Source: Desulfobacterales bacterium
GTDB lineage: Bacteria > Desulfobacterota > Desulfobacteria > Desulfobacterales > UBA2245
Length of the DNA: 64,000 nt
Assembly: GCA_040771865.1 (NCBI GenBank)
Contig: JAXGZF010000010.1
Coordinates: 62,001 to 126,000, forward strand
Direction of reading: 5' to 3'
How positions within the stretch are numbered: the stretch's first letter is position 1; each line of letters starts with the position of its first letter. A program made the position numbers and the translations under genes. Below are positions 15,814 to 40,996 of the stretch, in pieces. The notes under the pieces were generated by a model. That model was not told the origin of the DNA. It did not search any database and was given only the letters and a program-made list of their open reading frames with translations.

Positions 15814-16494
15814 TCAGGGATACCATCTGGCGAGCCTTTCCGGGCGAACGCCGAGCAGGTGGAGCAAAACCATGGTCCAGTTGCGCAGCGTGCAGGCGAT
15901 TATTCCCTCTCTTCTCCACCGGCGGGAGGATGTCTTCACCCTTTCGTCCAGGAGGCATATTTTTCCGCCGTTTCTCTTGATGCGCCGCATCAGGTCCATG
16001 TCCTCCATAACGGGCAGGTCCCTGTATCCGCCCATTCGAAGGAAATAGTCACGCCTGAGGAATATCGCCTGATCTCCGTAAGGAATGCGCGTAATGCGGG
16101 ATCGAATGGATGCCGCCTTCTCGATGATGCGGAGCGCATATCCTCTATCCGCTATTTCCAGGTCAAAGGCACCGCCCGCGTAATTATCATTCTTCATTAC
16201 AGAGGAGATCCTTCGAAGGCCTCCGGAAGGAAGTTTCGTATCGATGTGAAGAAACAGAAGGATATTACCGGATGCCGCCGCAGCCCCCTTGTTCATCTGC
16301 GTTCCTCGTCCTTTCCGTGAGGCGAGGCCTTTCACCCCTTTGACCGTCATGGCCTTCAGGGTCGCCGCCTCTTCACCGCCGTCCACCACAATGATTTCGA
16401 CTGCCTCTTCCGTCTCCGCGCACAGAAGCCGGTTGATCGCATCGTTAATCAGAGCTTCTTCATGGTAAACGGGAACGATGATTGAGATGGTCAT
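15814..16494 (-). CDS. GT2 glycosyltransferase, TIGR04283-like (radical SAM/selenodomain, arsenosugar-associated)
   Basis: ISIIVPV, VVDGG, GRGTQMNKGA, FLHIDT, PYGDQAIF, MED, TSSRRW, LARWY. Confidence 0.85.
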   Translation of the reverse strand: MTISIIVPVYHEEALINDAINRLLCAETEEAVEIIVVDGGEEAATLKAMTVKGVKGLASRKGRGTQMNKGAAAASGNILLFLHIDTKLPSGGLRRISSVMKNDNYAGGAFDLEIADRGYALRIIEKAASIRSRITRIPYGDQAIFLRRDYFLRMGGYRDLPVMEDMDLMRRIKRNGGKICLLDERVKTSSRRWRREGIIACTLRNWTMVLLHLLGVRPERLARWYP

Positions 16495-16601
16495 GATGGA
16501 ACCTCAAAAAAAAATGATAGTTCAGGGCGCTTCAAAACCGGAGATAGAGGGCGAACACTGCGCCGCAGCGGGGAAGATGACCGCAGCTCGACCTGGACGG
16601 A

Positions 16602-17435
16602 TTATTTACGAAGCTCTCGCTCATAATGTCGCCAGCGAAAAGTGTTGCGCAGATAATCGATCGTTTTGAGTCCGCCGGGCGGAAGGTCCTTTTGCCGTTC
16701 GCAGACTTCCGCAAGGTCCGGAAATTCATCTATGTCGCTCCAAAGCGGGAGAACGTGAACATCGACGCCATTCTTTCGAAACACCCGCATGGTGGCCTCA
16801 AAAACTTCCGGTCCGCTCCACTTGATGCCGCAAAATACCGCCGGAAGAAAGCCGCCGGAGGAGAAGCCTATTAGGTAATACCCCCCGTCCCGGGCCGGTC
16901 CGAGGACTGCGCCGCAGGTTTTGAGCGCATCAAACGCCTCGTGGAGAAAAGCCGGGGGAAGATCCGGGCAATCGCTGCCGATAAGAACGGCCCGTGAGCT
17001 TTGAAGCAATACATTCTGAAACGCATCGAGCATCCTTTGTCCCAGATCGCCCCCTTTCTGCGGAACGCAGACGATGTCGCCTCCGATCCAGTTTTCGACC
17101 GCGCCCCGGGCTTCGGGCGGATGAAAGAATGCCAGCGCAGGATAACCGGCGTGCCGAACCGTTGCAAAAATGTCGGAGACGAAACAGCGGTAGAGGTCAA
17201 GGGCGGCCTTATCGCCGATGCTTTGCGCCAGTCTTGTCTTCACGGCGCCTCTGACGGGGTTTTTCACAAAAACGATCAACCGGTTTTCGGCAGGGATTTT
17301 GGAATCCTCCGCACCGCCATTTATTTCCCGCGGATCGCAAAATTCTTCCATAAACGATGTCTTCTTATTTCTTCCATCCCGCAGGTGCGCTAACATCGTC
17401 CGTTCGACACCGCATACGCACCCCTTCATGTTCAT
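16602..17435 (-). CDS. TIGR04282-like transferase (DUF2064/CofC-like)
   Basis: FVKNPVRGAVKTRL, QKGGDLGQRM, LIGSDCP, GPARDGGYYLIG, DID. True start uncertain, probably downstream (e.g. 17351). Confidence 0.85.
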   Translation of the reverse strand: MNMKGCVCGVERTMLAHLRDGRNKKTSFMEEFCDPREINGGAEDSKIPAENRLIVFVKNPVRGAVKTRLAQSIGDKAALDLYRCFVSDIFATVRHAGYPALAFFHPPEARGAVENWIGGDIVCVPQKGGDLGQRMLDAFQNVLLQSSRAVLIGSDCPDLPPAFLHEAFDALKTCGAVLGPARDGGYYLIGFSSGGFLPAVFCGIKWSGPEVFEATMRVFRKNGVDVHVLPLWSDIDEFPDLAEVCERQKDLPPGGLKTIDYLRNTFRWRHYERELRK

Positions 17436-17676
17436 GCGGTTTCAAAAATATCTACATTGGCGGTATTCATGTGTCAAATAAATAAAAAAAATTAATTGAT
17501 GTCGGAAAATTGAAAAAAACAATCAGCCAGAACGTGTCGGATTTAAGCAAAACCTGTATTTCGAGAGGGGAATTAATTTTCTTTGGACAGCCATATTTTT
17601 ATTGTATGCTCAGGCGCTTTCAAGGCAATATTCTATTACCGAACAGTGACGCATAACTTCCTGGCAGCCATTATCT

Positions 17677-19092
17677 ATGAATCGCTTGAAAACAGACCGG
17701 ACACCATCTTGTATCAGGCCAAGGCTGTCCGGTTTGCTCACGCTCATCCCTGTTACGGCCTGCGCTTTCCTGGCGCTGGAACCCGAACTTCGGCTGGCTG
17801 TTCCGTTAATTGTTGGCCTTACGGCGGTGATGGCCATAACGCTTGCATGTGCGCTTTATTTTGGCGAGCGCAATACAATCGCTTGGTCTCCGTTCATAAT
17901 TCTTGCCGTGGCGCTGATTTTGCGCCTGATGTTTTTGTTTTCTCCCCCGCAGCTATCCGACGACATCTACCGATATCAATGGGATGGCGGCAATTTGCTG
18001 AGGGGCATCAATCCTTATGCTGCGGCGCCGTCCGATGTCGCTCCCCCGTCTGCCCTTTCCGACGTTCACTCCCGGATCAATCATTCCGAGTACGTCACCA
18101 TTTATCCGCCGTCGGCCCAGGTGATTTTTGCTGCAGGGGTCGCACTGGGAGGCGGCATTTTCGCCATGAAAAGTTTGCTCGTGCTGCTGGACATGGCGCT
18201 GTGCGTCCAGTTGGTTTTATTGTTGAAACGTCTTGAGATGCCGGCGTGGCGGGCGGTTCTGTATGCATGGAATCCCCTGCCGATACTGGAGATCGCCGGT
18301 TCCGGACATGTGGATGGAGCGGGCCTTTCGATGCTGATCGGCTCCGTCATCCTGCTGGTGATGCGACAGAAAAACGATTCCAGGCGCGGTCTCGAACGCT
18401 GGCCGTTTCTGTTGTCAGGAGCGCTCATGGCCGGGGCGGGCCTGGTGAAACTGTTTCCGTTCATGCTGGCGCCGGTGATTTTCTTTCTGGCGCCGAAAAG
18501 CCGCCGTCTGCATTTTACAGTCGGATTGACAGTGACTTCAGCGGCGCTTGTTTTTCCGTTCCTGCCGCACATAGTCAACATGGCCGACAGTCTGAACGTT
18601 TATGCCCGCCACTGGGAATTCGCCGGTTTTGCATTCAACGCTTTTCGCCTCATAAGCGGCTCGGGAACAATCGCCAGACAGGTTTTATCGCTCTGTTTTC
18701 TGTTGATCGTTGCGGCTGTCGTTTTCCGTTTCGTCTCCGGCACGCCTCGATCCGTTTGTCCCATGGCCGCAACGCGTCAGGCTTTGAACGCCTGTTACGC
18801 TATCGCCATGGCCTTTTTGCTGCTTACCCCTACCCTGCATCCCTGGTATGCTCTTTACCTGGCCGTGTTTCTGCCGTTCGTTCCGGGCGCTTCAGGAATG
18901 GTGCTCTGCTGGGCGGTCTTTCTGATATACCAGGTTCAGATTCTCTATTTTTCTGCCGGACAATGGGTCGAGAACCCGTACGTTGCGGCAGCGGTTTTCC
19001 TTGCCCCGTTCTCAGCCTGGTTTCTTAGCAGATCTCTTGCCGGAATTTGGCAGAAGCACGGGGGCCCAAGGGTCAGTAGTATTTACCCTTAA
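17677..19092 (+). CDS. Polytopic membrane glycosyltransferase (GT-C/GT87-like)
   Basis: LSDDIYRYQWDG, GINPY, TIYPP, YAWNPL, SGHVD, HPWY motifs; many TM segments. Confidence 0.8.
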   Translation: MNRLKTDRTPSCIRPRLSGLLTLIPVTACAFLALEPELRLAVPLIVGLTAVMAITLACALYFGERNTIAWSPFIILAVALILRLMFLFSPPQLSDDIYRYQWDGGNLLRGINPYAAAPSDVAPPSALSDVHSRINHSEYVTIYPPSAQVIFAAGVALGGGIFAMKSLLVLLDMALCVQLVLLLKRLEMPAWRAVLYAWNPLPILEIAGSGHVDGAGLSMLIGSVILLVMRQKNDSRRGLERWPFLLSGALMAGAGLVKLFPFMLAPVIFFLAPKSRRLHFTVGLTVTSAALVFPFLPHIVNMADSLNVYARHWEFAGFAFNAFRLISGSGTIARQVLSLCFLLIVAAVVFRFVSGTPRSVCPMAATRQALNACYAIAMAFLLLTPTLHPWYALYLAVFLPFVPGASGMVLCWAVFLIYQVQILYFSAGQWVENPYVAAAVFLAPFSAWFLSRSLAGIWQKHGGPRVSSIYP

Positions 19093-20527
19093 GATAGTGC
19101 CTCACATCGCTCACAAAATGTCTCAAGGTCTGTTTATACGGATAGATTCGAAATCTCAAACAATAACCTTTCCAAAGCCGGTCCAGCAATTCATAAAACT
19201 TCCGCAAGGGCAGCGCGATCAGCATCCGCACCAGCGCTCTCGGCAGATTCAGACGGACGCACAATGCAAAAACAGCGCGAAGCCTGCCTCGTTTATCCTG
19301 ATCTTTAATGACGATTGACGAGTTCTCATAAAATGTTTCAGGAAAGCGGGCGACCGGCGACTTCGCGAATCCGTGACGGAGAGCGTAAGCCTCAATATCG
19401 GTTCCCGGATAAACCTGCATCAGGGAAACGAAACTAAAGTGCGGCCGGACATGCGCATTGACCGAATAAGTCAACAGGTCGTCGTCGAGAGTTGATCCGG
19501 GCGCGCCAAGAATATTTTCCGTCGCAAATCGGATGCCATTTGCATGCAGCCAGTCACAGGCGTTTTCGAACTGCGAAAGACTCATCCCCCGCTTCAGAAT
19601 TCCGTTGCGCACCGCTTCGTTCCCTGCCTCCAGACCGAGCTTGACCGAAAGACAACCGGCCTGTCTCAGCAGGCCGGTTGTCTCGGCATCCAGCAAATCA
19701 GCCCGCAGATGACAGTGAAACGGAATCCCGATTTTGCAGGCATAGCGTTCTGCAAAGGCCCGAAGCCATCCCTGATCCAGGTTGAAGGTGTCGTCCTGAA
19801 AAACCACCATCTGCAGCGGATAGCGCCGCTGCAACTGCTGAATCTCCCCGATGACATGTCCGATGCTGCGCCTTCGGCAGAACATCCCGCGGCCATGATA
19901 CAACCTGCGATAGGCATGATTGAAGCAATAACTGCAATTGAATGGGCAGCCTCGAGATGCCATGACGTAAACAGTCGCCGGTTTGGCGCCCTGGCTGGCC
20001 CGCTCGAAAATGCTGCGGTCCGGCCAGGGCAGCTCATCGAGATTTTCAACAAGGTGACCCAGGTCATTTCGGCAAATCGTTCCGTCCGGGCGTTTGATCC
20101 ACCAGTTTGACAGGTTTTCGGGTAAAGCGCCGGTTTGGACTAGGGCGTTGACAAGGGCCGGAAGCGCATTATCGCCTTCACCCCTGCATACGGCATCGAT
20201 GCAGGGTTCGTTAATGCACTCCGGATAGAACGTCGGATGCGGACCTCCGGCCAGGACGAGCAGATGCGGATGCGTGGATTTGATTTGCCTAGCTCTTTCG
20301 ATAAACAGGGGGTGCTGGCCCGTGATCAGCGAAAGACACAGTATATCGGGTTTGAAAATGCGCAACAATAATTCCTGGCGCGCCGTATCCCCGAGAGCGG
20401 CGACCTCGGCGCGATGTCCGGCCTTTAAAAGCACGGCCGAAAGGGAAGCGATCCCCAGCGGTTGGGTGAGATGGTCAAAAGAAATAAAAAGGAGTTTCAT
20501 TGGATATTCTATTCTACGCGTTGACAA
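19073..20527 (-). CDS. B12-binding-domain radical SAM protein
   Basis: PLGIASL, GGPHPT, GEGD, SRGCPFNCSYC, FQDDTF, GLEAG. Alternative start at 20500. Confidence 0.88.
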   Translation of the reverse strand: MSTRRIEYPMKLLFISFDHLTQPLGIASLSAVLLKAGHRAEVAALGDTARQELLLRIFKPDILCLSLITGQHPLFIERARQIKSTHPHLLVLAGGPHPTFYPECINEPCIDAVCRGEGDNALPALVNALVQTGALPENLSNWWIKRPDGTICRNDLGHLVENLDELPWPDRSIFERASQGAKPATVYVMASRGCPFNCSYCFNHAYRRLYHGRGMFCRRRSIGHVIGEIQQLQRRYPLQMVVFQDDTFNLDQGWLRAFAERYACKIGIPFHCHLRADLLDAETTGLLRQAGCLSVKLGLEAGNEAVRNGILKRGMSLSQFENACDWLHANGIRFATENILGAPGSTLDDDLLTYSVNAHVRPHFSFVSLMQVYPGTDIEAYALRHGFAKSPVARFPETFYENSSIVIKDQDKRGRLRAVFALCVRLNLPRALVRMLIALPLRKFYELLDRLWKGYCLRFRIYPYKQTLRHFVSDVRHYLKGKYY

Positions 20528-21917
20528 TATTGCGTAGATGCCGGCTGGTAGAAGCAGCCAGGTGAACCCATTTATGCAGGGAATTGAGGTTTTTCAGAAA
20601 AAAAAGAATCCGAGACGGTCTGAGACTGAAGCGGATAAATGTCCTGCCGGCAATGGCGTGCAATTCCTTCGGCGGAACCTTGGCCAGGTTGTTGACCGCA
20701 TTCTGGAACACGCAATCCGAAAACCGGGCAGCTGCATCCGGTTGAAGCTGTGCGAAGATATCCGAACCGGGCAGTGGAACGAGAACCGAGAACGCCACCG
20801 CATCGAGATTCAGGGAAAGCGCCAGATCAACCGTCTGCGATATGTCATCGAACGTCTCATCCGGAAACCCCAGCATAAAAAATCCGCCGACATCGATGCC
20901 GTTTTTCTTCAGGTATGAGATCTTTAACGGCAGCTGATTCAGGTTGAGCTCCTTGCGAATCGATTTCTGAATTCGAGGACTCCCGGACTCGATGCCCAGG
21001 AATACGAAATGGCAGCCGCTCCTGCCCATCCATTCCGCAAGTTCCGCATCGAGGCTGTTGGCCTTGACGCCGTTGGGACAGCTCCAGACCATATCCAGCT
21101 TCCGGTCAAGAATTCCCCTGCAGATTTGAATCATACGGGCTTTGTCCTGAATGCAGTTGCTGTCCAGGATTTGAATTTCTCGGATGCCGTAATTTCGAAC
21201 AAGCAATTCAATCTCATCCAGAACGTGTTCGGCCGATCGGGCCCGATATCGCCGCCCCTCGATCAGGTGTATCGCGCAGAAGGTGCAATGCGAGGTGCAG
21301 CCGCGAGCGGTCGAAATTCCGACAATCGGATGACGTTTGGAGTAGAACAGATTGAATGGTACGTGCATTGATTCCGGATCGAGCAGGTCCCAGGCGGGCC
21401 AGCCGAGCTGATCCAGGTTTTCGACGGCCTCCGGCGGATTGCTCTCAATTGCGCTGTTGTTGCGCCACATGAGACCGGGAATGGTACGCAGCTTTTCCGC
21501 CGGCGGTCTGCCGGCATGGAATTGAAGCGATGAAACGAATCGTGGAAAACTCTGGTCCGCTTCGCCTATGAAAGCATATTCAAGACCGGGAAACTGATCG
21601 AATGCCGATTTTTTTGCGCCGCAGACATGGGGCCCGCCCAGAACAACCGAAATCTGCGGAAATTCTTGAGCGACCGCGGCATACAGTTGACGGCATGCGC
21701 CGAGGTCGCAAGTCATGACCTTCATGCCGACAATATCAATCGAGTTGGAGCGGATGGCCTCTAGCGCGCGGGCTGTACTCCATCCCCTGGTGTCTGGCAC
21801 ATGGAGAATCGGACTGTGTCCGGCCTTGCGCAGACCGGTTGCGAGATACCCGAGACCAAGATCGGGAACCCGGTAGTTCAAAAGGGTTTTCTGGGGGCGG
21901 GTTAGCAAAACGCGCAT
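20514..21917 (-). CDS. B12-binding-domain radical SAM protein
   Basis: PDLGLGYLA, GGPH, GEAD, TARGCTSHCTFC, GIESGS, FMLGFPDET. Confidence 0.88.
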   Translation of the reverse strand: MRVLLTRPQKTLLNYRVPDLGLGYLATGLRKAGHSPILHVPDTRGWSTARALEAIRSNSIDIVGMKVMTCDLGACRQLYAAVAQEFPQISVVLGGPHVCGAKKSAFDQFPGLEYAFIGEADQSFPRFVSSLQFHAGRPPAEKLRTIPGLMWRNNSAIESNPPEAVENLDQLGWPAWDLLDPESMHVPFNLFYSKRHPIVGISTARGCTSHCTFCAIHLIEGRRYRARSAEHVLDEIELLVRNYGIREIQILDSNCIQDKARMIQICRGILDRKLDMVWSCPNGVKANSLDAELAEWMGRSGCHFVFLGIESGSPRIQKSIRKELNLNQLPLKISYLKKNGIDVGGFFMLGFPDETFDDISQTVDLALSLNLDAVAFSVLVPLPGSDIFAQLQPDAAARFSDCVFQNAVNNLAKVPPKELHAIAGRTFIRFSLRPSRILFFLKNLNSLHKWVHLAASTSRHLRNIVNA

Positions 21918-22014: not shown

Positions 22015-23499
22015 TCATTCCGATGATCTTTCGATTGCCTTGTATAATGATTCCCTGATGTCTTTTGCCATGGTCAATGCAAAACCGAATGGAACCAGCA
22101 ACAGCAAGGATATGGCAAGCCAGGTCCCCCGCTGCGATGCAAAAAGAATCGGCAGCAGGCAGTAGAGGAACAGCAGGCCGTTGATGAAAATGTAAGGGAT
22201 GTTTTTCTGATGATACTGCAGGGCCGGCACCGGCATCCGGTCATCTTCCCGCATGCCGAATTTCGGCGTCCTCTCGAAAGCCCCGCCCGATCGAAACAGC
22301 CCCTTCAGCACGGAAAGGGAGATGCTGGGCGCCAGACCGATGGTAAGAGCCGGAAGCAGAAATACATAGCTCAGCTTTTTGGAGTTGCTTCGAATCGAAT
22401 AAAGCAGGAAGTAGCTCATGATCGCTCCGGTTGAAACCAGAAAAAGCGGCAGATCAATGCTGACGACCTGTTGCAGGCCGATGCCGACCCGCCAGTTGAT
22501 CGCCGGGTAGAGGGTCAGTATGGCGATCATGCCTAGGAGCCAGAAGATATTGGCCATCAAATGAACTGCGGCTTCAATCTTGACGGGCAGCGGCAAGCGT
22601 TCCTTCAAAAGTCGCGGCAGAATCTTCCGGGCCGTCTGTATGGAGCCTTTTGCCCAGCGCTGCTGCTGGGTGCGCAGTGCAGACAGGGTTACAGGAAGCT
22701 CGGATGGCACGTGGCACTCTTCGAGATAGACGAATCGCCATCCGGCCATTTGAGCCCGGTAACTCAGATCCAGGTCCTCGGTGACCGTGTCCGCCTGCCA
22801 GCCGCCGGCGGATTCGATGGCGCTTTTCCGCCAGACGCCGGCGGTGCCGTTGAAATTAAAGAACAGGCCCTGCTGAAAACGCACGCGATGCTCGATGCTG
22901 AAATGGGCGCCGAGCATGAGGGATTGAATGCCAGTGAACCAGGAGTGGCCGGCATTGCAGAAGCTCCAGCGGGCTTGGACCATGCCGACTTTCGGGTCCC
23001 TGAACCAGGGGGCGGTGGAATGCAGAAAATCAGAAGGAGGAATGAAGTCGGCGTCGAAAACGGCGATCAGTTCGCCCTGTGCCGTTTTGAGACCATTGGC
23101 GAGCGCTCCGGCCTTGTAGCCGACCCGGCAGGATCTTCGCACCACTCTCATAACAACCCCGCGCTGCCGCCACCAGGCAACACGTGCGTCCACCAGAGCG
23201 CAGGTATCATCGTCCGAATCGTCCAGCACCTGAATGTCGAGACGATCCGCAGGCCAGTCAAGACGGGCGGCTGCGTCCAGCAGGCGTTCCGCCACAAAGC
23301 GTTCATTGTAAAGCGGCAGTTGTACCGTAACCACAGGGAAGTGTTCGAATGCGGAAAAAGGGGCCGGCATGGCCGTTTCATCCGGCTTTTGTTTGTACAG
23401 GCAACAGATCAGCCAGAGCCGGTGTAATCCGTACAGGCAGACCAAAGACAGAGCGGCAAAATGGATCACCCCCAGAACCGGTATCAGTGCGGACAACAT
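22015..23499 (-). CDS. Membrane GT2 glycosyltransferase (cellulose-synthase-like)
   Basis: VTVQLPLYNE, LDDSDD, KAGAL, FDADF, TEDLDLS, QQQRW (D,D,D,QxxRW). Confidence 0.9.
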   Translation of the reverse strand: MLSALIPVLGVIHFAALSLVCLYGLHRLWLICCLYKQKPDETAMPAPFSAFEHFPVVTVQLPLYNERFVAERLLDAAARLDWPADRLDIQVLDDSDDDTCALVDARVAWWRQRGVVMRVVRRSCRVGYKAGALANGLKTAQGELIAVFDADFIPPSDFLHSTAPWFRDPKVGMVQARWSFCNAGHSWFTGIQSLMLGAHFSIEHRVRFQQGLFFNFNGTAGVWRKSAIESAGGWQADTVTEDLDLSYRAQMAGWRFVYLEECHVPSELPVTLSALRTQQQRWAKGSIQTARKILPRLLKERLPLPVKIEAAVHLMANIFWLLGMIAILTLYPAINWRVGIGLQQVVSIDLPLFLVSTGAIMSYFLLYSIRSNSKKLSYVFLLPALTIGLAPSISLSVLKGLFRSGGAFERTPKFGMREDDRMPVPALQYHQKNIPYIFINGLLFLYCLLPILFASQRGTWLAISLLLLVPFGFALTMAKDIRESLYKAIERSSE

Positions 23500-24536: not shown

Positions 24537-25030
24537 TTGCCGGCAATGCCGAGCTGTTTTTCCTCGAAAAGATACCTGTCCGGCCGCCAGTCCCGCAACG
24601 AACCCGTCTTCCCGACGCCGCCGATCACGTCTTCTCCGGATACCAGCCAGAAACGCCGGGTCCAGTTTTTCCAGAACCCTGCCAGCTCCAGTGCGCCGTG
24701 TTCGTCGCTCGTTCCCCGGGCCAGGATTTGGGCACTGGGCGGATCATCCGAATAGCGGATCAGGGCGTAGCACGCACGGGGATGGAGGCCCGAAGCGTTC
24801 AGAATGAAGGCGCCAGTGGACTCCCGATAGATCATTCTGCCGCTTCCGCCGTTGACAATGGACCAATCGGCGGGGTTCTTGGCAAACAGCAGCAGTTCCT
24901 TGGCATCGCGGGCTGCACGCGTTGTTGATTCCAATTCTGCCGTAAAGCTGACTGAAACTGAAACCATAAGCGCCAGAGCCGCCAGCGTCAGTTCGCACAA
25001 AGATTGGAGTGTGGACGGTAAGATGTTCAT
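24533..25030 (-). CDS. Hypothetical exported/membrane-anchored protein
   Basis: N-terminal hydrophobic segment; ATGA overlap with arsS. Confidence 0.65.
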   Translation of the reverse strand: MNILPSTLQSLCELTLAALALMVSVSVSFTAELESTTRAARDAKELLLFAKNPADWSIVNGGSGRMIYRESTGAFILNASGLHPRACYALIRYSDDPPSAQILARGTSDEHGALELAGFWKNWTRRFWLVSGEDVIGGVGKTGSLRDWRPDRYLFEEKQLGIAGK

Positions 25031-32950: not shown

Positions 32951-32992
32951 TTCAAACAAAAGGCCGCCTGAAAAGGCGGCCTTTTGTTTGAA
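32951..32992. terminator. Intrinsic (bidirectional-type) terminator after the 964-aa rhodanese
   Basis: TTCAAACAAAAGGCCGCCT-gaaa-AGGCGGCCTTTTGTTTGAA, perfect 19-bp inverted repeat with U-tracts. Confidence 0.85.
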
Positions 32993-33007: not shown

Positions 33008-35902
33008 TCAGGGCAGATCCGGATTCTCATCCAGGATGGGATTTTCGACCGGATAATCTCCGTTATAGGCGGATCCATTACCCATGCTCCATTCGAACCA
33101 GGAACTGTCGAAATTGCTGATTTCCGGATAACCGATCATGTATGCATAAAACCAGGCCAAACTGGAGCGCCAGGCCGTCCCGCAGTAAAAGCTCAGGTGC
33201 TTGTCGGTGGTGATGCCGTGAGAATTCCAGTAGATGTAAATCTCAGCGGATGATTTCAGAGTGCCGTCGTCGTTGACATAGTCTTCCATGGTCCACGGGC
33301 CTGAACCTGCCTTGCCCCAGACTGCGCCGGGAATGCGGCCGCTGGTGGGAATATAGCTGTACGGAGCTGTCGCACCGGTATATTCATCCCAGGAACGGAT
33401 GTCAACAATCAGTGCATCGGTTTCAACGCCGTTGACAACATCGCGCACATAGGGAATGTCCACCTTGTATTCGGGATGAATGGCCGTGATTCGGCCGGGA
33501 TCATCCGGGTCAAAGAATGCCGCCGGCGACCGGAGATTGGTGGTTGTTTCCAGTTCATATCCGGCGGATGTCCAGGCATTCTTGCCTCCGTCTAAAAAGC
33601 GGACGTCGCTGACGCCGGCGTACATAAGAGTCCAGAACAGACGTGCGGCGGCGGTTGCGTCATCGCCATAAACGACGACCGTGGCATCTTTGTTGATGCC
33701 CATGTAGGCAATGGCCGGAAGCAGATACTCGTCCGGATAGATATTCCACCAGTTCCGCGGCAGGGCATCATTCGGACCAAGCCCCTTGGCGGCGTCCTCT
33801 TCTTCCGTTGTGCTGCGATCCCAGCAGGCCGGTTCGCCCGCTTCCACGGGCCAGGCGTTGCGGGCGTTGAAACAGTCGTATTCGATCTCGTCGGTGTTTA
33901 CCCAGATTGCTCTCGGGATATGACCGTTGTAGTATGGAGCATCAGCCGGGCCCCAGCCGGTTTCGACGATCACATAAGGCTTGCCGCCATTGTTGTTATC
34001 CGTCATTTGCTTTAACCAGGCCGCGCTGACCAACTTGTCGGTATTGCCGGTCTCCCTTGGATTGTCGTAATAGGACCACTGGAACCAGCCTCCATCAAAG
34101 TTTGCGGCCTGCCATCCCATCAGATAGGCATAAAAAGTATACAGACCGGATCGCCAGCCCGTACCGCAATAGAAATACATGGTTTTATCCGGTGAAAACC
34201 CCGAAGCGATCCAGTTCTTTTCAACCTCCGTATAGGTTCGCAGCGATTGCGTATCGTCTCTGACCAGTTCAACCCAGTCCCCGATCCATCGGGCTGTAGG
34301 AATGCGGCCGTATTCATGGAAATAGTGATAGTAGGAATTTGATGATCCGACGAATTCCGCCCATTCCCGATCGTCCACGATGATTGCGTCGGTATTGACG
34401 CCGCCGATCACGTCATGCAGATCCTCCATGGTGGCGAGGAATTGAGCATTGCCTTCTCCGCCGCCAAAATTAGCGGCAGGCAGGGTGTGCGGCGTGGTTT
34501 CGATGTCTCCGCCATATGCAACCCAGGCGGCATAGCTTCCATTGAGGATGCGCACATCGTTCACTCCGGCAAGAAGCAATGCCCAGGCCGTGCGTCCGGC
34601 GGTCATCATGGAAATATCGTCATCCGCGTAAACCACGACGGTCTTGTCTTTGGAAATGCCCAGTTCGCCGAAAAACTGCTGTAACTCGGCAATGGGTTTG
34701 ACATTGCCTTCCTCGGGAAATTCATATCCGTCTCCGTACTCTGAATTCGGGCCGTTTTCGATACTGTATGTGTCCATGAAAATCGAACCCGGAATGTGAC
34801 CGTTTTCATAATGGCTTCCAACATAATCCGTCCGGTTTTCACTGTATCGGGGCTCATACGAAGTATAAAGAATGACAAACCCGTTCCCCGGATAGGTCGG
34901 CGGGTTATTCCCCTTGATAAGCTCGTCCACCCATCCCGGATACACCAGAGCCTGATAATTGGCCATCTTGTCCATCGGATACGTGGTTTCATCCGCGGCG
35001 GCCCACTCGATAATGGATGCGTCATAGTTGGCTGCGATGGGGTAGCCCATCAGCCTCAGGGTAAAGTAGACAAATCCGCTTCGAATGCCGACCGTGCAGT
35101 TGGAGGCGACATCCTTGTCGGCAGTGACGCCGCGCGCTTCAAGCAGGGTCTTGAGATCCGCATAGGCCAGAACGGTCTTGTCTGCGTTAAAGAACCGGGC
35201 GTAGGGAATCTGGACCGCGCCGGGAATATGGCCGCCCCGGGCTTCTCCATAAAGCTGCCAGCCGTTGTATTCTTCATCCGTCCGGGCGTCGATGAGAACG
35301 AAATTGTTGTTTTGCATTTTGGCCAGAATGGATTCCTTGGTGGCCCTCACGGAGTTGTTGACCGCCGCCTTGAAGGTTGCCTGGGTCAGGGCGTTGGTTT
35401 TTGTTTCCGTAGGTCTTCCGTCAGCGACCCATTTGTCCCACCCTCCGTTGAGAATGTGGACATCCGTGCACCCGAGGTATTCGAGCATCCAGAAGATGCG
35501 CCCCGCAGCACCCCAGGCCGCCGTGGTGTTGTCGTAGACGACGACGGTCATATCCCGGGTCAAACCCGCCTCGCCGAGAAGAACCTCCAGCTCTTCCACG
35601 GGTTTCAGGCCGGATCCCCAGGTCCAGAAGTCGTTGTGTATCAGGCTGATGGCCCCCGGTATGTGTCCCTGGTCGTATGCGGCTTTGCCCCGCGCATCGA
35701 TGACCAGCAGATCGGAGTTGTTCAGGTTGTCCTCGACGGAATCCGCGGATACGAGAAGTCCGGCATTGGGGTATTCCGTTGACGCGGGATCAAGAGTCAC
35801 CACCGTTTCCTTGCTGTCCGAGGAGCTGCTGCAACCGGGAAGCAGAAATATTGCCGCCAAGGCCAAAAGGCCCAGAACTATAAAAACACTGCTGCGTTTC
35901 AT
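33008..35902 (-). CDS. Six-domain rhodanese lipoprotein (YnjE-like active sites)
   Basis: Lipobox LLPGC; three GHIP-containing tandem pairs; loops CTVGIRS, CGTGWRS, CGTAWRS. Confidence 0.9.
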   Translation of the reverse strand: MKRSSVFIVLGLLALAAIFLLPGCSSSSDSKETVVTLDPASTEYPNAGLLVSADSVEDNLNNSDLLVIDARGKAAYDQGHIPGAISLIHNDFWTWGSGLKPVEELEVLLGEAGLTRDMTVVVYDNTTAAWGAAGRIFWMLEYLGCTDVHILNGGWDKWVADGRPTETKTNALTQATFKAAVNNSVRATKESILAKMQNNNFVLIDARTDEEYNGWQLYGEARGGHIPGAVQIPYARFFNADKTVLAYADLKTLLEARGVTADKDVASNCTVGIRSGFVYFTLRLMGYPIAANYDASIIEWAAADETTYPMDKMANYQALVYPGWVDELIKGNNPPTYPGNGFVILYTSYEPRYSENRTDYVGSHYENGHIPGSIFMDTYSIENGPNSEYGDGYEFPEEGNVKPIAELQQFFGELGISKDKTVVVYADDDISMMTAGRTAWALLLAGVNDVRILNGSYAAWVAYGGDIETTPHTLPAANFGGGEGNAQFLATMEDLHDVIGGVNTDAIIVDDREWAEFVGSSNSYYHYFHEYGRIPTARWIGDWVELVRDDTQSLRTYTEVEKNWIASGFSPDKTMYFYCGTGWRSGLYTFYAYLMGWQAANFDGGWFQWSYYDNPRETGNTDKLVSAAWLKQMTDNNNGGKPYVIVETGWGPADAPYYNGHIPRAIWVNTDEIEYDCFNARNAWPVEAGEPACWDRSTTEEEDAAKGLGPNDALPRNWWNIYPDEYLLPAIAYMGINKDATVVVYGDDATAAARLFWTLMYAGVSDVRFLDGGKNAWTSAGYELETTTNLRSPAAFFDPDDPGRITAIHPEYKVDIPYVRDVVNGVETDALIVDIRSWDEYTGATAPYSYIPTSGRIPGAVWGKAGSGPWTMEDYVNDDGTLKSSAEIYIYWNSHGITTDKHLSFYCGTAWRSSLAWFYAYMIGYPEISNFDSSWFEWSMGNGSAYNGDYPVENPILDENPDLP
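34962..35902. repeat. Direct repeat copy 1 (941 bp, 5' module of rhodanese gene)
   Basis: Near-identical to 37070-38010 (offset 2108). Confidence 0.92.
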
Positions 35903-36126
35903 ACGAATTTCATCCTTTCATTTTACTTAATTCCTATCTCTGTTATGAAGCCGGTTGCTGTGCCAAAACAGCGGCCTCTTTATTGGGCCGGGGATGGCTC
36001 CTGCGGAACTCAAACTGTACGGAAAGATCTTAACTTTTCCATATTATCACAAGACCACTCGATGCATTATCCCTGTCGAGCTTCTGCATATTGGAGTGTA
36101 TTCTTTTAACCATCTGACTCCTCCGG

Positions 36127-38010
36127 TTATTCTGGCACTCCGGTCTCCCTGTCATTATCATCATTAGTTGACCACAGGAACCATCCGCCTTCATAGTTTG
36201 CTGCAGGCCATCCCATCATATATGCATAAAAGGTATACATGGCCGACCTCGCACCTCCGCCGCAATAAAAATACATTTTTTTGCTAGGCGTAAATCCTTT
36301 TTGCTTCCAATCATACTCTGCATCTGCAAAGGGTATAAAAGACTGATGATCCTCACTTACAATGTCAACCCAGTCGCCTATCCATTTTGCTGTAGGGATA
36401 CGGCCGTATTCTTCAAACCACCAATAGTATGAATTAGACGCGCCGGTGTATTCATCCCACTCACGGTCATCGACGATAATTGAACCAGTGTCGATGCCGT
36501 CAATAACATCCTGAAGATCTTCAGTGGTAGCTATATACTCAGTGTTGCCCGAAGATACGCCAAAACTTGCCACGGGGGACCATGAAGTTTCTCCGGTTTC
36601 GACTGCAAATCCCGCCGCCGTCCATGCTTGATAGCCCCCGTTCAGAATACGCACGTCGTCGACCCCTGCATATAATAATGCCCAGGCAATGCGCCCTGCT
36701 GTCATCATGGAAATATCATCATTCGCGTAAACGATGACTGTTTTATCCTTGGTGATTCCCATTCCGGCAAAAAATGTCTGCAAAGCAGAAAGTTCCTTGA
36801 CATATGATTCGCTCGGACTCTGATAACCATCTCCAAATTCTGAATTCGGACCGGTCTCGACTGAATAAGTATCCAGGAATATAGCGCCGGGAATGTGCCC
36901 GACTGAGGAGAAGGGGGTTCCTGCCCCGGTAGTAGATATCTCATTTGTCTCCCATCGGGGCCACCATGATGTAAAGACAATCACGTATCCGTTGCCGGGA
37001 TATGTTGCAGGATTGTTGCCTTCGATCAGATCATTAACCCATTGCGGAGATACCAGGGCCTCAAAATGCGCCATCTTGTCCATCGGATACGCGGTTTCAT
37101 CCGCGGCGGCCCACTCGATAATGGATGCGTCATAGTTGGCTGCGATGGGGTAGCCCATCAGCCTCAGGGTAAAGTAGACAAATCCGCTTCGAATGCCGAC
37201 CGTGCAGTTGGAGGCGACATCCTTGTCGGCAGTGACGCCGCGCGCTTCAAGCAGGGTCTTGAGATCCGCATAGGCCAGAACGGTCTTGTCTGCGTTAAAG
37301 AACCGGGCGTAGGGAATCTGGACCGCGCCGGGAATATGGCCGCCCCGGGCTTCTCCATAAAGCTGCCAGCCGTTGTATTCTTCATCCGTCCGGGCGTCGA
37401 TGAGAACGAAATTGTTGTTTTGCATTTTGGCCAGAATGGATTCCTTGGTGGCCCTCACGGAGTTGTTGACCGCCGCCTTGAAGGTTGCCTGGGTCAGGGC
37501 GTTGGTTTTTGTTTCCGTAGGTCTTCCGTCAGCGACCCATTTGTCCCACCCTCCGTTGAGAATGTGGACATCCGTGCACCCGAGGTATTCGAGCATCCAG
37601 AAGATGCGCCCCGCAGCACCCCAGGCCGCCGTGGTGTTGTCGTAGACGACGACGGTCATATCCCGGGTCAAACCCGCCTCGCCGAGAAGAGCTTCCAGCT
37701 CTTCCACGGGTTTCAGGCCGGAGCCCCAGGTCCAGAAGTCGTTGTGTATCAGGTTGATGGCGCCTGGTATGTGTCCCTCGTCGTATGCGGCTTTGCCCCG
37801 CGCATCGATGACCAGCAGATCGGAGTTGTTCAGGTTGTCCTCGACGGAATCCGCGGATACGAGAAGTCCGGCATTGGGGTATTCCGTTGACGCGGGATCA
37901 AGAGTCACCACCGTTTCCTTGCTGTCCGAGGAGCTGCTGCAACCGGGAAGCATAAATATTGCCGCCAAGGCCAAAAGACCCAGAACTATAAAAACACTGC
38001 TGCGTTTCAT
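36127..38010 (-). CDS. Four-domain rhodanese lipoprotein
   Basis: Lipobox MLPGC; loops CTVGIRS and CGGGARS; YEGGW. Confidence 0.9.
   Translation of the reverse strand: MKRSSVFIVLGLLALAAIFMLPGCSSSSDSKETVVTLDPASTEYPNAGLLVSADSVEDNLNNSDLLVIDARGKAAYDEGHIPGAINLIHNDFWTWGSGLKPVEELEALLGEAGLTRDMTVVVYDNTTAAWGAAGRIFWMLEYLGCTDVHILNGGWDKWVADGRPTETKTNALTQATFKAAVNNSVRATKESILAKMQNNNFVLIDARTDEEYNGWQLYGEARGGHIPGAVQIPYARFFNADKTVLAYADLKTLLEARGVTADKDVASNCTVGIRSGFVYFTLRLMGYPIAANYDASIIEWAAADETAYPMDKMAHFEALVSPQWVNDLIEGNNPATYPGNGYVIVFTSWWPRWETNEISTTGAGTPFSSVGHIPGAIFLDTYSVETGPNSEFGDGYQSPSESYVKELSALQTFFAGMGITKDKTVIVYANDDISMMTAGRIAWALLYAGVDDVRILNGGYQAWTAAGFAVETGETSWSPVASFGVSSGNTEYIATTEDLQDVIDGIDTGSIIVDDREWDEYTGASNSYYWWFEEYGRIPTAKWIGDWVDIVSEDHQSFIPFADAEYDWKQKGFTPSKKMYFYCGGGARSAMYTFYAYMMGWPAANYEGGWFLWSTNDDNDRETGVPE
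37070..38010. repeat. Direct repeat copy 2
   Basis: Near-identical to 34962-35902. Confidence 0.92.
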
Positions 38011-38397: not shown

Positions 38398-39720
38398 ATG
38401 CCAAGCAAATGCGTTCTGATTCTTCTGGATGGTCTGGGCGACCGCAGCTATGAACAGCTTCTGCATCAGACCCCGCTGCAGGCGGCCCGAACCCCTGCCC
38501 TGGATTATCTGGCGGAAATGGGCGCCAGCGGTCTTTACCACGCTTCCCTGGTGGGTCAGGCCCTGCCCAGTGAAAATGCCCATTTCGCGATGTTTGGCTA
38601 CGAAAAAGACGAATTTCCCGGCCGGGGCGCTCTGGAGGCTTTAGGTGCCGGAATCGATCTGAATCCTGAGGATGTTGCCGTGCTTGCCCATTTCGTCAGC
38701 GTGCGCGAGTCGAAAGGGTCCCTCGTTCTGGTAAAGGATCGACCGGTTGCCTCCGAGGATGAGATCGTTGCGCTGTTTAAGGCAGTGGAAGCATATGAAG
38801 AAGGCGGCGTGAACGTCCGTTTTATTCGAACAAAAAAAATGGACGGAATCATCATGCTTCAGGGAAATGTGGCACCCTTTGTGACCGATTCGGATTCCAT
38901 CAGAAAAGGCGCCCCGCTTGTGGAAATCAAACCATGGACGGATTACCGCCAGGATGCCGCTTCCTGCAATACGGCCAGGGCTTTAAAGAGTTATCTGGTT
39001 TACAGCTACAGGAAGTTGAAGAACCATCCGGTGAATAAACTTCGAGCTAAAAAAGGACTGCCCCCTGTCAACGCGATTGCCACACAACGCGCCGGCCGTT
39101 TGAAAACAGTGGTTCCTTTTGCCCGGAAGTACGGTCTTCGCGGACTTTCCATCGCATCTTCATTCGTCTACTGGGGCCTTTCCGCATATATCGGCCTGGA
39201 TTGCATAAAGGCGGCAGATACGCAAGATCCGGGCAAAGATATTGCCCGGCGTCTGGCCATTGCCCGCAAGGCCCTGAAAACCTATGACTTTATACACGTT
39301 CATACCAAGGCGCCGGACGAGGCGGCGCACAAAAAGGATCCGGTGGAAAAAAAACGGGTCATCGAATCCCTGGACAGGGGTATCGGAGAGGCAATCGAAC
39401 CGCTGATGAATGATCCCGAGGTGCTGATCGTGGCTACGGCCGATCATTGCACGCCAAGCGAGGAACCGCTGATTCACTCGGGCGAGACGGTGCCGCTGAC
39501 TTTTTTCGGCCGGGGCATACGGCGGGACCGTGTGAACAGATTCGACGAAATCAGCGCCGCGAACGGTGCCCTGGGGTGTCTTCGGGGAAAGGAATTCACC
39601 TACCTGATTCTCAATCACCTGGAACGGGCAAAACTCCACGGCATTATGGACACGCCGAATGATCAGCCGTTCTGGCCCGGCCATTATGAGCCGTTCAAAA
39701 TCGAACAGGACAGGAAATGA
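38398..39720 (+). CDS. Cofactor-independent phosphoglycerate-mutase-like (ApgM/alkaline phosphatase superfamily) metalloenzyme
   Basis: LLDGLGD, TPLQAARTP, PSENAH (Ser nucleophile), GRGALEALG, HTKAPDEAAH, TADH, H-S-G. Confidence 0.85.
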   Translation: MPSKCVLILLDGLGDRSYEQLLHQTPLQAARTPALDYLAEMGASGLYHASLVGQALPSENAHFAMFGYEKDEFPGRGALEALGAGIDLNPEDVAVLAHFVSVRESKGSLVLVKDRPVASEDEIVALFKAVEAYEEGGVNVRFIRTKKMDGIIMLQGNVAPFVTDSDSIRKGAPLVEIKPWTDYRQDAASCNTARALKSYLVYSYRKLKNHPVNKLRAKKGLPPVNAIATQRAGRLKTVVPFARKYGLRGLSIASSFVYWGLSAYIGLDCIKAADTQDPGKDIARRLAIARKALKTYDFIHVHTKAPDEAAHKKDPVEKKRVIESLDRGIGEAIEPLMNDPEVLIVATADHCTPSEEPLIHSGETVPLTFFGRGIRRDRVNRFDEISAANGALGCLRGKEFTYLILNHLERAKLHGIMDTPNDQPFWPGHYEPFKIEQDRK

Positions 39721-40307
39721 CAAACACGGTGCCAGAAAATGAAACCGGCGTGATTCACGGACGGTTTCAGGTGGTTCACAACGACCATGTGAGATACCTT
39801 CTGGCCGGCAAGAGGCTTTGCCGGCATCTCGTCGTGGGCATCACCAACCCCGATCCTCTGCTGACCCGCAATGAGGATTCGGATTTAAAAAGAAGCGGCC
39901 CTCTGGCCAATCCATTAACCTATTACGAACGGTATATTCTCATTCGATCGACACTGGCCGAATCCGGTCTGAATCCTGATGAATTCTCCGTGGTGCCGCT
40001 GCCGATCAGTCTGCCGGAACTGTATCAATATTATGTTCCCATGGACGCCGTTTTTTATCTGTCGATTTACGATGAATGGGGAAGACGAAAACTTGGCTAC
40101 TTTCAGTCTCTGGGGCTTAAGACCCATGTCCTGCGGAATGTGCCGATAGCGGAAAAGGGCATCAGCGGCAGCGATGTCCGAAACCGGATGCTCATGGGAG
40201 AACCCTGGGAGCACCTGGTTCCGCAGGCGGTCAGCGCGCTTCTGAAACATTGGGATATTCCGGCACGGCTCAGAAAAATTCGGGAAATTCAGATGCTCCG
40301 GCAATAA
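39717..40307 (+). CDS. Cytidylyltransferase-like (HxGH-superfamily) nucleotidyltransferase
   Basis: HGRFQVVHNDH, VVGITNPD, NPLTYYER, ISGSDVR, WEHLVP. Confidence 0.82.
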   Translation: MTNTVPENETGVIHGRFQVVHNDHVRYLLAGKRLCRHLVVGITNPDPLLTRNEDSDLKRSGPLANPLTYYERYILIRSTLAESGLNPDEFSVVPLPISLPELYQYYVPMDAVFYLSIYDEWGRRKLGYFQSLGLKTHVLRNVPIAEKGISGSDVRNRMLMGEPWEHLVPQAVSALLKHWDIPARLRKIREIQMLRQ

Positions 40308-40381
40308 TCGTAGCCAAGGATACTGTTTGATCAACTCGAAGCAATCGAATTGTTGTTAAATTTAATCATAAGGAGACAACC

Positions 40382-40996
40382 ATGTCGAATACAGTGGATA
40401 CAAGAGGACTTGCCTGCCCCCAACCGGTCATCATGACGAAAATGGCGCTTGATACGGATGAGCATATCATCGTGATCGTCGATAATCCCGCGGCCAGAGA
40501 GAATGTATGCCGTCTGGCGAAAAGCAAGGGATGTGAGCTCAAGGTTGAAGAAAAGCCGGATGGAATCTATATCTCTATTTTTTCAGACGACTCGAAAGTC
40601 AAAGAAGCTGAGAGCCCGGCCGGCATAGACGACCCGGTCGGAGATGCGGATCGGAAAACAGGCCCTCTGGTCGTCACCATTCAGGAGAACCGAATGGGAA
40701 GAGGCAATGATGAGCTGGGCTACGTTTTGATCAAAAGCTTTCTCCACACCCTGGGCGAGGTCCGTCCTTCTCCCGACGTCATGATTTTCTTCAACACGGG
40801 CGTCAAGCTCTGCGTAAAAGGATCGGATGTGGTTGATGATTTGAAGCATCTTCAGGAAACAGGGATCAAAATACTCGTGTGCGGAACCTGCCTGAATTTT
40901 TTCGGACTGATGAACGACCTGGAGGCAGGGATGATTTCCAATATGTACGATATCAGCGAGACCCTGCTTTCGGCCGGAAAAATCGTGACCGTCTGA
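40382..40996 (+). CDS. yedF: Sulfurtransferase-like selenium metabolism protein YedF (TusA + DsrE-like domains)
   Basis: DTRGLACPQPVI, MGRGNDELG, FNTGVKL, ILVCGTCL, ISNMYDI. Confidence 0.85.
   Translation: MSNTVDTRGLACPQPVIMTKMALDTDEHIIVIVDNPAARENVCRLAKSKGCELKVEEKPDGIYISIFSDDSKVKEAESPAGIDDPVGDADRKTGPLVVTIQENRMGRGNDELGYVLIKSFLHTLGEVRPSPDVMIFFNTGVKLCVKGSDVVDDLKHLQETGIKILVCGTCLNFFGLMNDLEAGMISNMYDISETLLSAGKIVTV

Follow-up and report, generated by a model that had tools for sequence, protein, structure and literature searches.

An island of genes in a 64,000-nucleotide (nt) stretch of DNA from a Desulfobacterales bacterium (UBA2245; GCA_040771865.1, contig JAXGZF010000010.1; the whole stretch is called the window) combines rhodanese-domain proteins, one with an in-frame TGA at a catalytic position, with envelope-type glycosyltransferases and an ArsS-family radical S-adenosylmethionine (SAM) enzyme. 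It spans positions 15814-40996, and at least six further loci, belonging to two phyla, keep its core of about ten genes in order. The island is tentatively explained, at somewhat less than even confidence, as one composite envelope system in which sulfane sulfur or selenium would be relayed inward, a polyprenyl-phosphate-dependent glycoconjugate would be made, and ArsS with its accompanying transferases would add a 5'-deoxyadenosyl or ribosyl derivative of some element. The explanation is based on family memberships and two folds, the tight operon, synteny, homology to an E. coli gene group and the catalytic selenocysteine. It is based further on the YedF and apgM-like genes that adjoin the CCG-VTT gene in Thermodesulfovibrionales loci too, on sulfur amino-acid genes in the flanks, VTT genes near ArsS, the co-occurrence of ArsS with TIGR04282 and the lack of a link to ArsM. 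From this pattern we infer the direction of flow, the element carried, the connection between relay and glycan, and the kind of product.

In the proposed mechanism, a 12-strand outer-membrane channel would admit small, possibly hydrophobic species, such as sulfur in its zero-valent or sulfane form, or selenium; an exported rhodanese, together with YnjE-like rhodanese lipoproteins, would carry persulfide or perselenide on eight sites, one of them selenocysteine (Sec); a YdjX-type VTT domain in the inner membrane would pass the species inward or handle its lipid carrier; and on the cytoplasmic face an HdrD/DsrK-like Fe-S/CCG module would reduce the S-S or Se-S bond, YedF probably serving as carrier. 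A Dpm1-like family 2 glycosyltransferase (GT2) would make a polyprenyl-phosphate sugar for use in the periplasm by a PimE/ALG3-like GT-C transferase, a BcsA-like GT2 would make a membrane-bound glycan or glycolipid, and B12-binding radical SAM enzymes would modify some substrate. As an optional insert, ArsS would put the 5'-deoxyadenosyl group of SAM on a nucleophilic metalloid or chalcogen, and the TIGR04282 and TIGR04283 proteins would process the adduct to a ribosyl conjugate; this optional branch would be present in the window and four other loci.

Operon layout and recurrence of the island core

Open reading frames (ORFs) were listed and Pfam and NCBIfam profiles scanned over 13-44 kb of the window. 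The initial annotation had read the island as a single pathway that installs arsenic, selenium or sulfur on a sugar or glycolipid; every family that it named was recovered by the profile scans or, for the GT-C transferase and the beta-barrel, by fold. Eleven minus-strand genes run from the Sec-containing rhodanese (32593) to B12 enzyme a (19073), with only two gaps above 40 nt (104 and 97 nt). The ArsS gene overlaps the upstream small-protein gene by 4 nt and the downstream GT2 gene by 16 nt. A 19-bp palindromic terminator-like hairpin (32951-32992, no strand assigned), coinciding with sub-threshold Rfam matches, follows the gene of a 964-aa rhodanese and separates it from the eleven-gene unit. 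The GT-C gene is encoded on the opposite strand and converges with the B12 genes; TIGR04282 and TIGR04283 make up a separate unit that diverges from the GT-C gene; and the apgM-like, nucleotidyltransferase and YedF genes form a plus-strand unit divergent from the gene of a 627-aa rhodanese. The window flanks are unrelated to the island (formate dehydrogenase operon on the left, LolCE and carboxyltransferase on the right). Rfam searches of 10-42 kb at E ≤ 1 gave no riboswitch and no selenocysteine insertion sequence (SECIS), only sub-threshold leader- or terminator-like matches at 32.8-33.1 kb. An island copy of the UGA/hairpin leader of the neighbouring formate dehydrogenase was sought, and only chance matches of up to 12 nt were found.

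Related loci were collected in three ways. The phylum sample comprised 301 genomes with 116 ArsS matches, 30 of which were chosen for long contigs; ±20 kb were fetched around each and searched by tblastn with 20 island proteins (E ≤ 1e-5). The CCG-VTT protein was searched across 185,579 species genomes, which yielded seven loci (L107-L113). A metagenome scan with the synthase-like GT2, from which 80 loci were kept out of 586 relatives, added L117, L118 and L119 to the island-related loci. No description of the island was found in the literature under ArsS/arsenosugar, TIGR and DUF accession or ydjX-ynjE topics, with poor coverage of subscription journals.

Co-conservation across genomes, on which the initial annotation had staked its interpretation, was found. 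Syntenic copies of the core occur in Geobacteraceae and Desulfuromonadaceae, in a further family of the phylum, in Nitrospiraceae and on metagenome contigs, with the gene order recurring at 52-77% protein identity; the core comprises the rhodanese lipoproteins, the barrel, the CCG-VTT protein, the Dpm1-like GT2, a rhodanese, a small exported protein, the synthase-like GT2, the GT-C transferase and the B12 enzymes. One of the 30 ArsS loci (G152:C19) holds nearly the whole island in order (ten genes, 40-71% identity). The Geobacteraceae loci L107 and L109 share the series rhodanese, barrel, CCG-VTT, GT2, rhodanese, small protein, ArsS and GT2, followed in L109 by the GT-C gene, and the 3.5-kb fragment L108 has the same order. 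In L110 (Geobacter sp.) the CCG-VTT, GT2, rhodanese, GT2, B12 enzyme b and GT-C genes are present with abutting frames that leave no room for the small protein or ArsS; neither a barrel nor a large rhodanese lipoprotein was found there within 10 kb. L118 has the whole order without ArsS and carries a TIGR04282 gene (179.7 bits against a cut-off of 134), L117 holds ArsS, GT2 and B12 enzyme b, and in L119 the GT2 adjoins a rhodanese. The frameshifted Nitrospiraceae locus L112 retains seven island genes. L111 and L113 (Thermodesulfovibrionales) share only the CCG-VTT gene and the apgM-like gene (47% identity), with YedF also in L113. Thus ArsS occupies its junction in five of the seven loci where the junction is visible (the window, G152, L107, L109 and L117).

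Around the 30 ArsS genes, TIGR04282 and/or TIGR04283 genes were found in 11 loci (both in seven) and a VTT-domain gene within 6 kb in nine, the only two further VTT matches at 6-20 kb both being in G162. YedF was near ArsS in one locus (G082), and 13 loci held none of the island proteins. Flank genes of island copies include MetY (O-acetylhomoserine sulfhydrylase) in L109, CysK and an Rrf2 regulator in L110, and two cystathionine lyase/synthase genes in G152. In L109, a Geobacteraceae metagenome-assembled genome, a gene for a DsrE2-like sulfur carrier and one for a family 2B encapsulin stand directly after the GT-C gene (L109:13313-15501).

The proposed rhodanese relay and its predicted selenocysteine

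The rhodanese ORF that had been called as 565 aa (30896-32593) belongs to the family assigned to it, but does not end where it was called: the frame passes a TGA and runs to 30761, giving 610 aa (30761-32593, minus strand). The apparent 240-nt gap behind the shorter ORF is coding, with 44 further codons past the TGA (30896-30898, minus strand). The TGA takes the place of the catalytic Cys of the C-x4-R loop in paralogues and in homologues at other loci, here in the last rhodanese domain, and the 44 residues beyond it align with homologues. The host genome, which is 98% complete, encodes SelD (with a TGA of its own) and SelB (362.6 bits against a cut-off of 242). Because the in-frame TGA aligns to Cys, the downstream sequence is conserved and the genome holds the Sec machinery, the read-through product is predicted to be a selenoprotein that the initial annotation had missed, a four-domain rhodanese lipoprotein with catalytic Cys272 and, at its second catalytic site, selenocysteine U566. 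A 9-bp hairpin (30865-30885, minus strand), starting 10 nt past the TGA, is a candidate SECIS; the fold z-score of the 69-nt stretch, at -0.97, lacks significance, it had no Rfam match, and there was no TGA-bearing orthologue for covariation.

Five rhodanese-domain proteins with eight catalytic rhodanese sites, one of them Sec, are encoded in the island. Besides the Sec-containing protein, these are a six-domain YnjE-like lipoprotein of 964 aa (33008-35902, minus strand; Cys269, Cys579 and Cys907; Pfam Rhodanese in six stretches, 265 bits), a four-domain lipoprotein of 627 aa assigned by Pfam (36127-38010, minus strand; Cys269 and Cys583), which is a recent paralogue of the 964-aa gene, an exported two-domain rhodanese (25052-25999, minus strand; Cys277; 128.7 bits) with 62-70% identical copies in G152, L107, L109, L110 and L118, and a lipoprotein (26036-27208, minus strand; 44 bits) in which a rhodanese-homology domain without the catalytic Cys is joined to a YdjY domain with a Cys-rich motif. 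The catalytic loops are of the six-residue sulfurtransferase type, C-x4-R, whereas rhodaneses of the arsenate-reductase (Cdc25) type have a longer loop. The three large rhodaneses begin with lipoboxes, with Ser/Thr-rich stretches after the lipobox Cys. At their 5' ends the three genes (33008-38010 and 30761-32593) have in common a unit of about 1 kb that has been duplicated: over the first 1020 nt the 964-aa gene matches the 627-aa gene at 96.6% identity, and the Sec-bearing gene has 84-85% identity to either one, which points to recent duplication or gene conversion.

The barrel protein of 279 aa (29817-30656, minus strand) was modelled with AlphaFold2 (AF2) as a signal helix and 12 strands (predicted local distance difference test (pLDDT) 78.8), and its best PDB matches were the COG4313 outer-membrane channel 4rl8 (TM 0.74-0.76) and FapF. 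The next gene (27974-29878, minus strand) encodes a 634-aa fusion of a 4Fe-4S dicluster domain and two CCG domains (HdrD/DsrK-like) with a YdjX-type VTT/DedA domain (VTT 97.7 bits against a Pfam cut-off of 33.9; CCG 60.8; Fer4_17). Nine full-length orthologues were aligned. The protein reached 231 bits with NF045663, under the cut-off of 530, and very low scores (27-30 bits) with the DsrK and HmcF models. The VTT domain was also considered as a stand-in for YedE, and this was ruled out, YedE itself being present at 481.6 bits on contig C11 of the host genome; that gene (G000:C11:28424-30558, outside the window) adjoins an open frame of 500 aa that gives a generic match to SAM-methyltransferases.

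The YdjY lipoprotein matched the NCBIfam ydjY_domain model (E 2.6e-8, under cut-off), and because of this match the corresponding region of E. coli K-12 was examined. There ydjX (DedA), ydjY, ydjZ (DedA), ynjABCD, ynjE (a three-domain rhodanese) and ynjF are annotated as neighbours. By BLASTP the island VTT domain is 32% identical to YdjX over 229 residues (E 4e-31) and also matches YdjZ (E 3e-18), the 964-aa lipoprotein is 35% identical to YnjE (E 5e-53), and the C-terminal domain of the YdjY lipoprotein is 28% identical to YdjY (E 2e-13). On these alignments the relay half of the island is homologous to ydjX/ydjY/ydjZ/ynjE, and both groups keep VTT proteins, YdjY and a multi-domain periplasmic rhodanese as neighbours. 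They differ in that the island VTT domain is fused to an Fe-S/CCG module, its rhodaneses are lipoproteins with up to six domains and one Sec, the YnjBCD ABC transporter and YnjA are lacking, and glycosyltransferases and ArsS are added. A full-text literature search found no functional study of the E. coli cluster. According to the available part of a preprint (10.1101/2022.02.03.479048), all eight E. coli DedA paralogues, YdjX and YdjZ included, were tested and DedA alone gave strong undecaprenyl-phosphate transport; its authors suggest that the other paralogues transport other lipids.

Three genes on the plus strand follow the rhodaneses. The YedF protein (40382-40996), with TusA-like and DsrE-like domains (both matched by Pfam), belongs to a carrier family of selenium metabolism (TIGR03527 215.4 bits against 110); copies stand beside the CCG-VTT gene in L113 and beside the ArsS triad in G082. 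A complex prediction of YedF with the CCG module (residues 30-405) gave no verdict (score 0.00). The apgM-type metalloenzyme (38398-39720; TIGR00306 330.5 bits against 320) is a paralogue resembling phosphoglycerate mutase; a role as the housekeeping mutase was ruled out, a canonical GpmI being encoded elsewhere in the genome (686 bits). Between them lies a small nucleotidyltransferase like NMNAT and cytidylyltransferases (39717-40307; CTP_transf_like E 6.7e-4; PRK01153 E 2.7e-14, under cut-off). The eight catalytic rhodanese sites, the DsrK/HdrD-like CCG module and YedF bear out the chalcogen theme of the initial annotation. The combination of a dicluster with two CCG domains and a nearby TusA+DsrE-type gene is shared with DsrK/HdrD-type CCG reductases and their TusA/DsrE/DsrC carriers, a likeness to which the DsrE2-like gene next to the L109 island adds; in the island the CCG module is fused to VTT, whereas those systems have a DsrM-like cytochrome b partner.

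Geobacter sulfurreducens, a Desulfuromonadales-type anaerobe, likewise has a rhodanese lipoprotein, ExtH, together with an outer-membrane channel, ExtI. In the accessible text of PMC5877670, PMC6148476 and PMC13510729, this pair is encoded beside the periplasmic, polysulfide-reducing selenoprotein ExtKL/MccSep and is linked to selenite, tellurite and sulfur. The island barrel is COG4313-like with 12 strands, in contrast to the 21 strands of ExtI, and the island has no cytochromes. Membership in the ExtH family (NF040901, selenite/tellurite operon rhodanese) was rejected for the island lipoproteins, which scored 62.7-82.2 bits, far under the cut-off of 200.

Glycosyltransferases and B12-binding radical SAM enzymes

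The pairing of a GT2 with a GT-C transferase claimed by the initial annotation was confirmed by profile matches and by the GT-C fold. The 313-aa GT2 (27213-28154, minus strand; Pfam GT2) is of the Dpm1/AglJ-like polyprenyl-phosphate sugar synthase type, with matches to AglJ, dolichyl-phosphate hexose transferase and PpgS models that are all under their cut-offs, and copies with 59-70% identity occur in all island loci. Its annotated start lies within the end of the CCG-VTT gene, with an overlap of 181 nt (27974-28154), and tblastn coverage of 96-98% in L108-L110 takes in the overlapped N-terminal part; the true start probably lies downstream of 28154, even though that part is covered in L108-L110.

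The 471-aa membrane protein (17677-19092, plus strand) had no Pfam match at E up to 10 and no PDB sequence match. Its AF2 model (pLDDT 80.6) matched 9wno (glycosylphosphatidylinositol (GPI) mannosyltransferase I), 9s6r (ALG3) and 9dm5 (PimE) in Foldseek with E values of 1e-4 to 8e-4. GPI mannosyltransferase I, ALG3 and PimE are GT-C enzymes with polyprenyl- or dolichyl-phosphate-mannose donors. Ten aligned sequences (the frameshifted L112 copy was left out) all have the same Asp-containing acidic motif in their first loop; four of them match Pfam GT87 (best E 3.7e-8), while the window copy does not. As modelled, the protein is a GT-C transferase like GT87, PimE, ALG3 and PIG-M. The two enzymes thus resemble the mycobacterial Ppm1/PimE and the ArnC/ArnT pairs, in which a Dpm1/AglJ-like GT2 goes with a GT-C transferase; they differ from them in being joined to a BcsA-like synthase and rhodaneses, and in the missing GT87 match of the window GT-C.

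The synthase-type membrane GT2 of 494 aa (22015-23499, minus strand; Pfam Glyco_tranf_2_3, Glyco_trans_2_3 and GT21) carries the processive-synthase motifs D, DxD, TED and QxxRW, none of which varies in alignment A1; it matches the catalytic domain of BcsA (E 7e-24) and has 58-77% identical copies in island loci. In two of the metagenome loci (L120:8139-11833 and L122:11582-15366) the GT2 gene is followed by a distant barrel (29-32% identity), a TPR protein and a protein of about 670 aa without a family, a layout that resembles synthase-dependent polysaccharide export sets.

Two B12-binding radical SAM enzymes, with the B12-binding and Radical_SAM domains of Pfam, complete the set. Enzyme a (19073-20527, minus strand) had HpnJ, ApyD and BchE as best NCBIfam matches, all far under cut-offs, and a 71% identical copy in the G152 island; enzyme b (20514-21917, minus strand; Pfam) matched ApyD, HpnJ and the Sden_1168 P-methyltransferase (137 bits against 575) and has 65-69% identical copies in L110 and L117. 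The small exported protein of 165 aa (24533-25030, minus strand) had no Pfam or NCBIfam match; an Atlas search returned unnamed clusters only, and 40-62% identical copies occur in G152, L107, L109 and L118.

The sugar-transferases could instead glycosylate the rhodanese lipoproteins at their Ser-rich N-terminal linkers in a Ppm1/Pmt-like manner, the island being a sulfur-respiration or uptake apparatus with ArsS as a passenger. The Dpm1-like GT2 and a GT-C of the polyprenyl-phosphate-mannose-dependent class fit this proposal, as do the lipobox Cys and following Ser/Thr-rich stretches of the three large lipoproteins and the precedent of the Geobacter ExtH/ExtI pair beside a polysulfide reductase gene (PMC5877670, PMC6148476 and PMC13510729, each as far as accessible). 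The BcsA-like synthase and the B12 radical SAM enzymes would be left unexplained by it, in L110 both GT2 genes and the GT-C gene are kept although neither a barrel nor a large rhodanese lipoprotein turned up within 10 kb, and the ExtH scores are only 62-82 bits against 200. Such a role is regarded as very doubtful.

ArsS, its possible substrates and the case for one system

The ArsS-family enzyme (23484-24536, minus strand) has the CX3CX2C radical SAM motif and a C-terminal Cys/Sec-rich DUF3641 domain (153.8 bits) and exceeds the curated TIGR04167 cut-off (378.4 bits against 300); a PDB sequence search gave only a weak match to YydG. The CofC-like transferase of the TIGR04282/DUF2064 family (16602-17435, minus strand) scored 190.4 bits against 134 (DUF2064 112 bits), and the TIGR04283 GT2 (15814-16494, minus strand; NCBIfam 'arsenosugar biosynthesis glycosyltransferase'; Pfam Glycos_transf_2) 242 bits against 182. 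All three fall in the NCBIfam set TIGR04167/TIGR04282/TIGR04283, which, with the cyanobacterial arsenosugar genes arsM-arsS (Synechocystis), is among the closest known systems, and ArsS and TIGR04282 co-occur strongly. The island differs in that its genome is without ArsM, that its ArsS lies inside a rhodanese/glycosyltransferase operon and in a separate clade, and that its host is a selenocysteine-using anaerobe.

ArsM was sought in the host genome and not found: the best scores were 42.7 bits with NF008823 (cut-off 263) and 24.7 bits with NF038099, a model of the arsenosugar type (cut-off 400), and TIGR04169 gave no match. Across the 301 genomes, ArsS was over cut-off in 110 and ArsM in 85, and no association between them was detected (ArsM in 32 of 110 ArsS-positive and 53 of 191 ArsS-negative genomes, odds ratio 1.07); with the threshold relaxed to E ≤ 1e-30, the counts became 59 of 110 and 84 of 191. 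By contrast with ArsM, TIGR04282 was present in 103 of 110 ArsS-positive and 48 of 191 ArsS-negative genomes (odds ratio 44), and four of the seven exceptions are genomes that are 61-85% complete. The initial annotation had proposed profiling against selD and arsM; the arsM half thus gave no association with ArsS, and selD, being near-universal (275/301), did not discriminate. In many cases in the phylum, the open frame that holds a TIGR04282 match is 430-500 aa long or longer (for example G010:C23, G083:C72 and G262:C343), which suggests fusions with another domain, possibly a TIGR04283-type GT2.

In a tree of 34 ArsS sequences, those of the window, L117, L109 and L107 formed a clade with 100/100 support, and the same four with G152, G135 and G102 a clade with 100/99 support. 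Among the five sampled genomes of this island-type clade (its sister G086 included), TIGR04282 was present in all five and TIGR04283 in four, mostly unlinked to ArsS, and ArsM was found in none at E ≤ 1e-30. About 40 ArsS matches of the sample carry one TGA (Sec forms), while the window copy is a Cys form; the accessible parts of PMC13188914 and PMC9312934 list Sec-form ArsS as a predicted selenoprotein family. Directly upstream of ArsS, two genomes that belong to the same family have a selD gene with a TGA (G100:C59:9014-11355 and G133:C117:242-2741).

A true arsenic pathway leading to an arsenosugar or arsenosugar-lipid is considered unlikely. Its dimethylarsenite would have to come from sulfidic surroundings or from ArsM-independent methylation of arsenic by the two B12 radical SAM enzymes, with the rhodaneses and the CCG module handling thio-arsenic. 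ArsS, TIGR04282 and TIGR04283 do exceed the cut-offs of families named for arsenosugar synthesis, and in the available text of PMC13598754 and PMC12159101 the ArsS reaction is demonstrated in vitro only for the adenosylation of dimethylarsenite to DDMAA; B12 enzyme b resembles P-methyltransferases (Sden_1168 137 bits, PhpK 104 bits, both under cut-offs), and two methylases would fit the two methylations needed. However, the nearly complete genome lacks ArsM, ArsS and ArsM are not associated in the sample, the B12 enzymes occur without ArsS in L110 and ArsS with only one B12 enzyme in G152, the Pfam and NCBIfam scans detected no ars resistance genes in the island, and the rhodanese loops are of the sulfurtransferase type. 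Since the host genome has no ArsM, dimethylarsenite made by the cell itself is an unlikely substrate of ArsS, and since the arsenic-methylating partner enzyme is lacking, the product is probably not a textbook arsenosugar. Together these results weaken the arsenic reading, and selenium or sulfur is not thereby proven. A more specific form of the composite explanation, given an equally low probability, holds that in anaerobes without ArsM the enzyme adenosylates a chalcogen (selenium or sulfane sulfur) supplied by the rhodanese/VTT-CCG/YedF relay, not arsenic, and that TIGR04282 and TIGR04283 would lead to a 5-seleno- or 5-thio-ribosyl conjugate that polyprenyl-phosphate-dependent transferases would place in the envelope.

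Several observations speak against the composite system. ArsS passes an equivalog cut-off whose sole characterised member, according to the accessible text of PMC13598754 and PMC12159101, acts on dimethylarsenite; the 32 ArsS genomes that do carry ArsM belong here, as do five genomes (G162, G168, G228, G137 and G257) with ArsS in a single frame of 666-704 aa, about twice the usual length with some 350 extra residues, in one of which (G162 only; G162:C22:70825-72447) an ArsM-like methyltransferase match falls within the long frame. ArsS is an optional insert and dispensable to the island: L110 and L118 lack it at the junction, and none was found in L112 within 10 kb. Only in this window were TIGR04283 and the YdjY lipoprotein found within the island, the apgM/nucleotidyltransferase/YedF trio does not adjoin the island in G152, L107, L109, L110 or L118, and the island flanks vary from locus to locus. 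The wider family of the synthase-like GT2 (about 41-51% identity, 586 metagenome relatives) is common and stands mostly outside any rhodanese context; it accounts for 77 of the 80 kept loci, in mostly unrelated contexts, with a GT-C neighbour in 7/80 and a barrel neighbour in 4/80. The sampling is limited as well: five of the 30 ArsS loci were cut by contig ends, the tblastn threshold of E ≤ 1e-5 may overlook divergent neighbours, and since the genomes are related and hence not independent, the co-occurrence ratios are descriptive and do not amount to a statistical test.

Alternatively, three separate systems without a shared product could be neighbours, namely a ydjX/ynjE-type uptake relay for sulfur or selenium, an envelope glycan synthase set and the ArsS triad. 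The optional place of ArsS, the presence of TIGR04283 inside the island in this window only and the occurrence of the GT2, GT-C and barrel without rhodaneses in the wider family favour this, as do the TIGR04282 and TIGR04283 genes far from ArsS in G152, G135 and G102 and the island-copy flanks, which point to sulfur assimilation. Separate systems are nevertheless judged rather unlikely: rhodanese, CCG-VTT, both GT2 and GT-C genes keep one order with overlapping or abutting frames in two phyla, ArsS is inserted in the operon with overlapping start and stop codons in five loci, and the island ArsS copies form one clade (100/99 support). The single element-sugar pathway of the initial annotation is partly supported: the core genes are co-conserved, and ArsS and TIGR04283 are not fixed parts of the island.

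The labels now attached to ArsS, TIGR04282 and TIGR04283 bear on many genomes. Because ArsS (110 of 301 species) tracks TIGR04282 and not ArsM, their annotation as arsenosugar enzymes may be mistaken, or only partly right, in a very large group of anaerobes. The island sets ArsS in a conserved operon with a predicted selenocysteine rhodanese relay and envelope sugar-transferases, a concrete setting for a role of ArsS without ArsM, and gives context likewise for the uncharacterised E. coli ydjXYZ-ynjE genes and for DedA proteins of the YdjX type. If the link between element and sugar is true, iron- and sulfur-reducing bacteria would make a new natural organo-chalcogen or organo-arsenic envelope compound; if ArsS acts on a chalcogen, about one third of the sampled species of the phylum would hold a new organoselenium or organosulfur sugar pathway that is annotated as arsenosugar synthesis.

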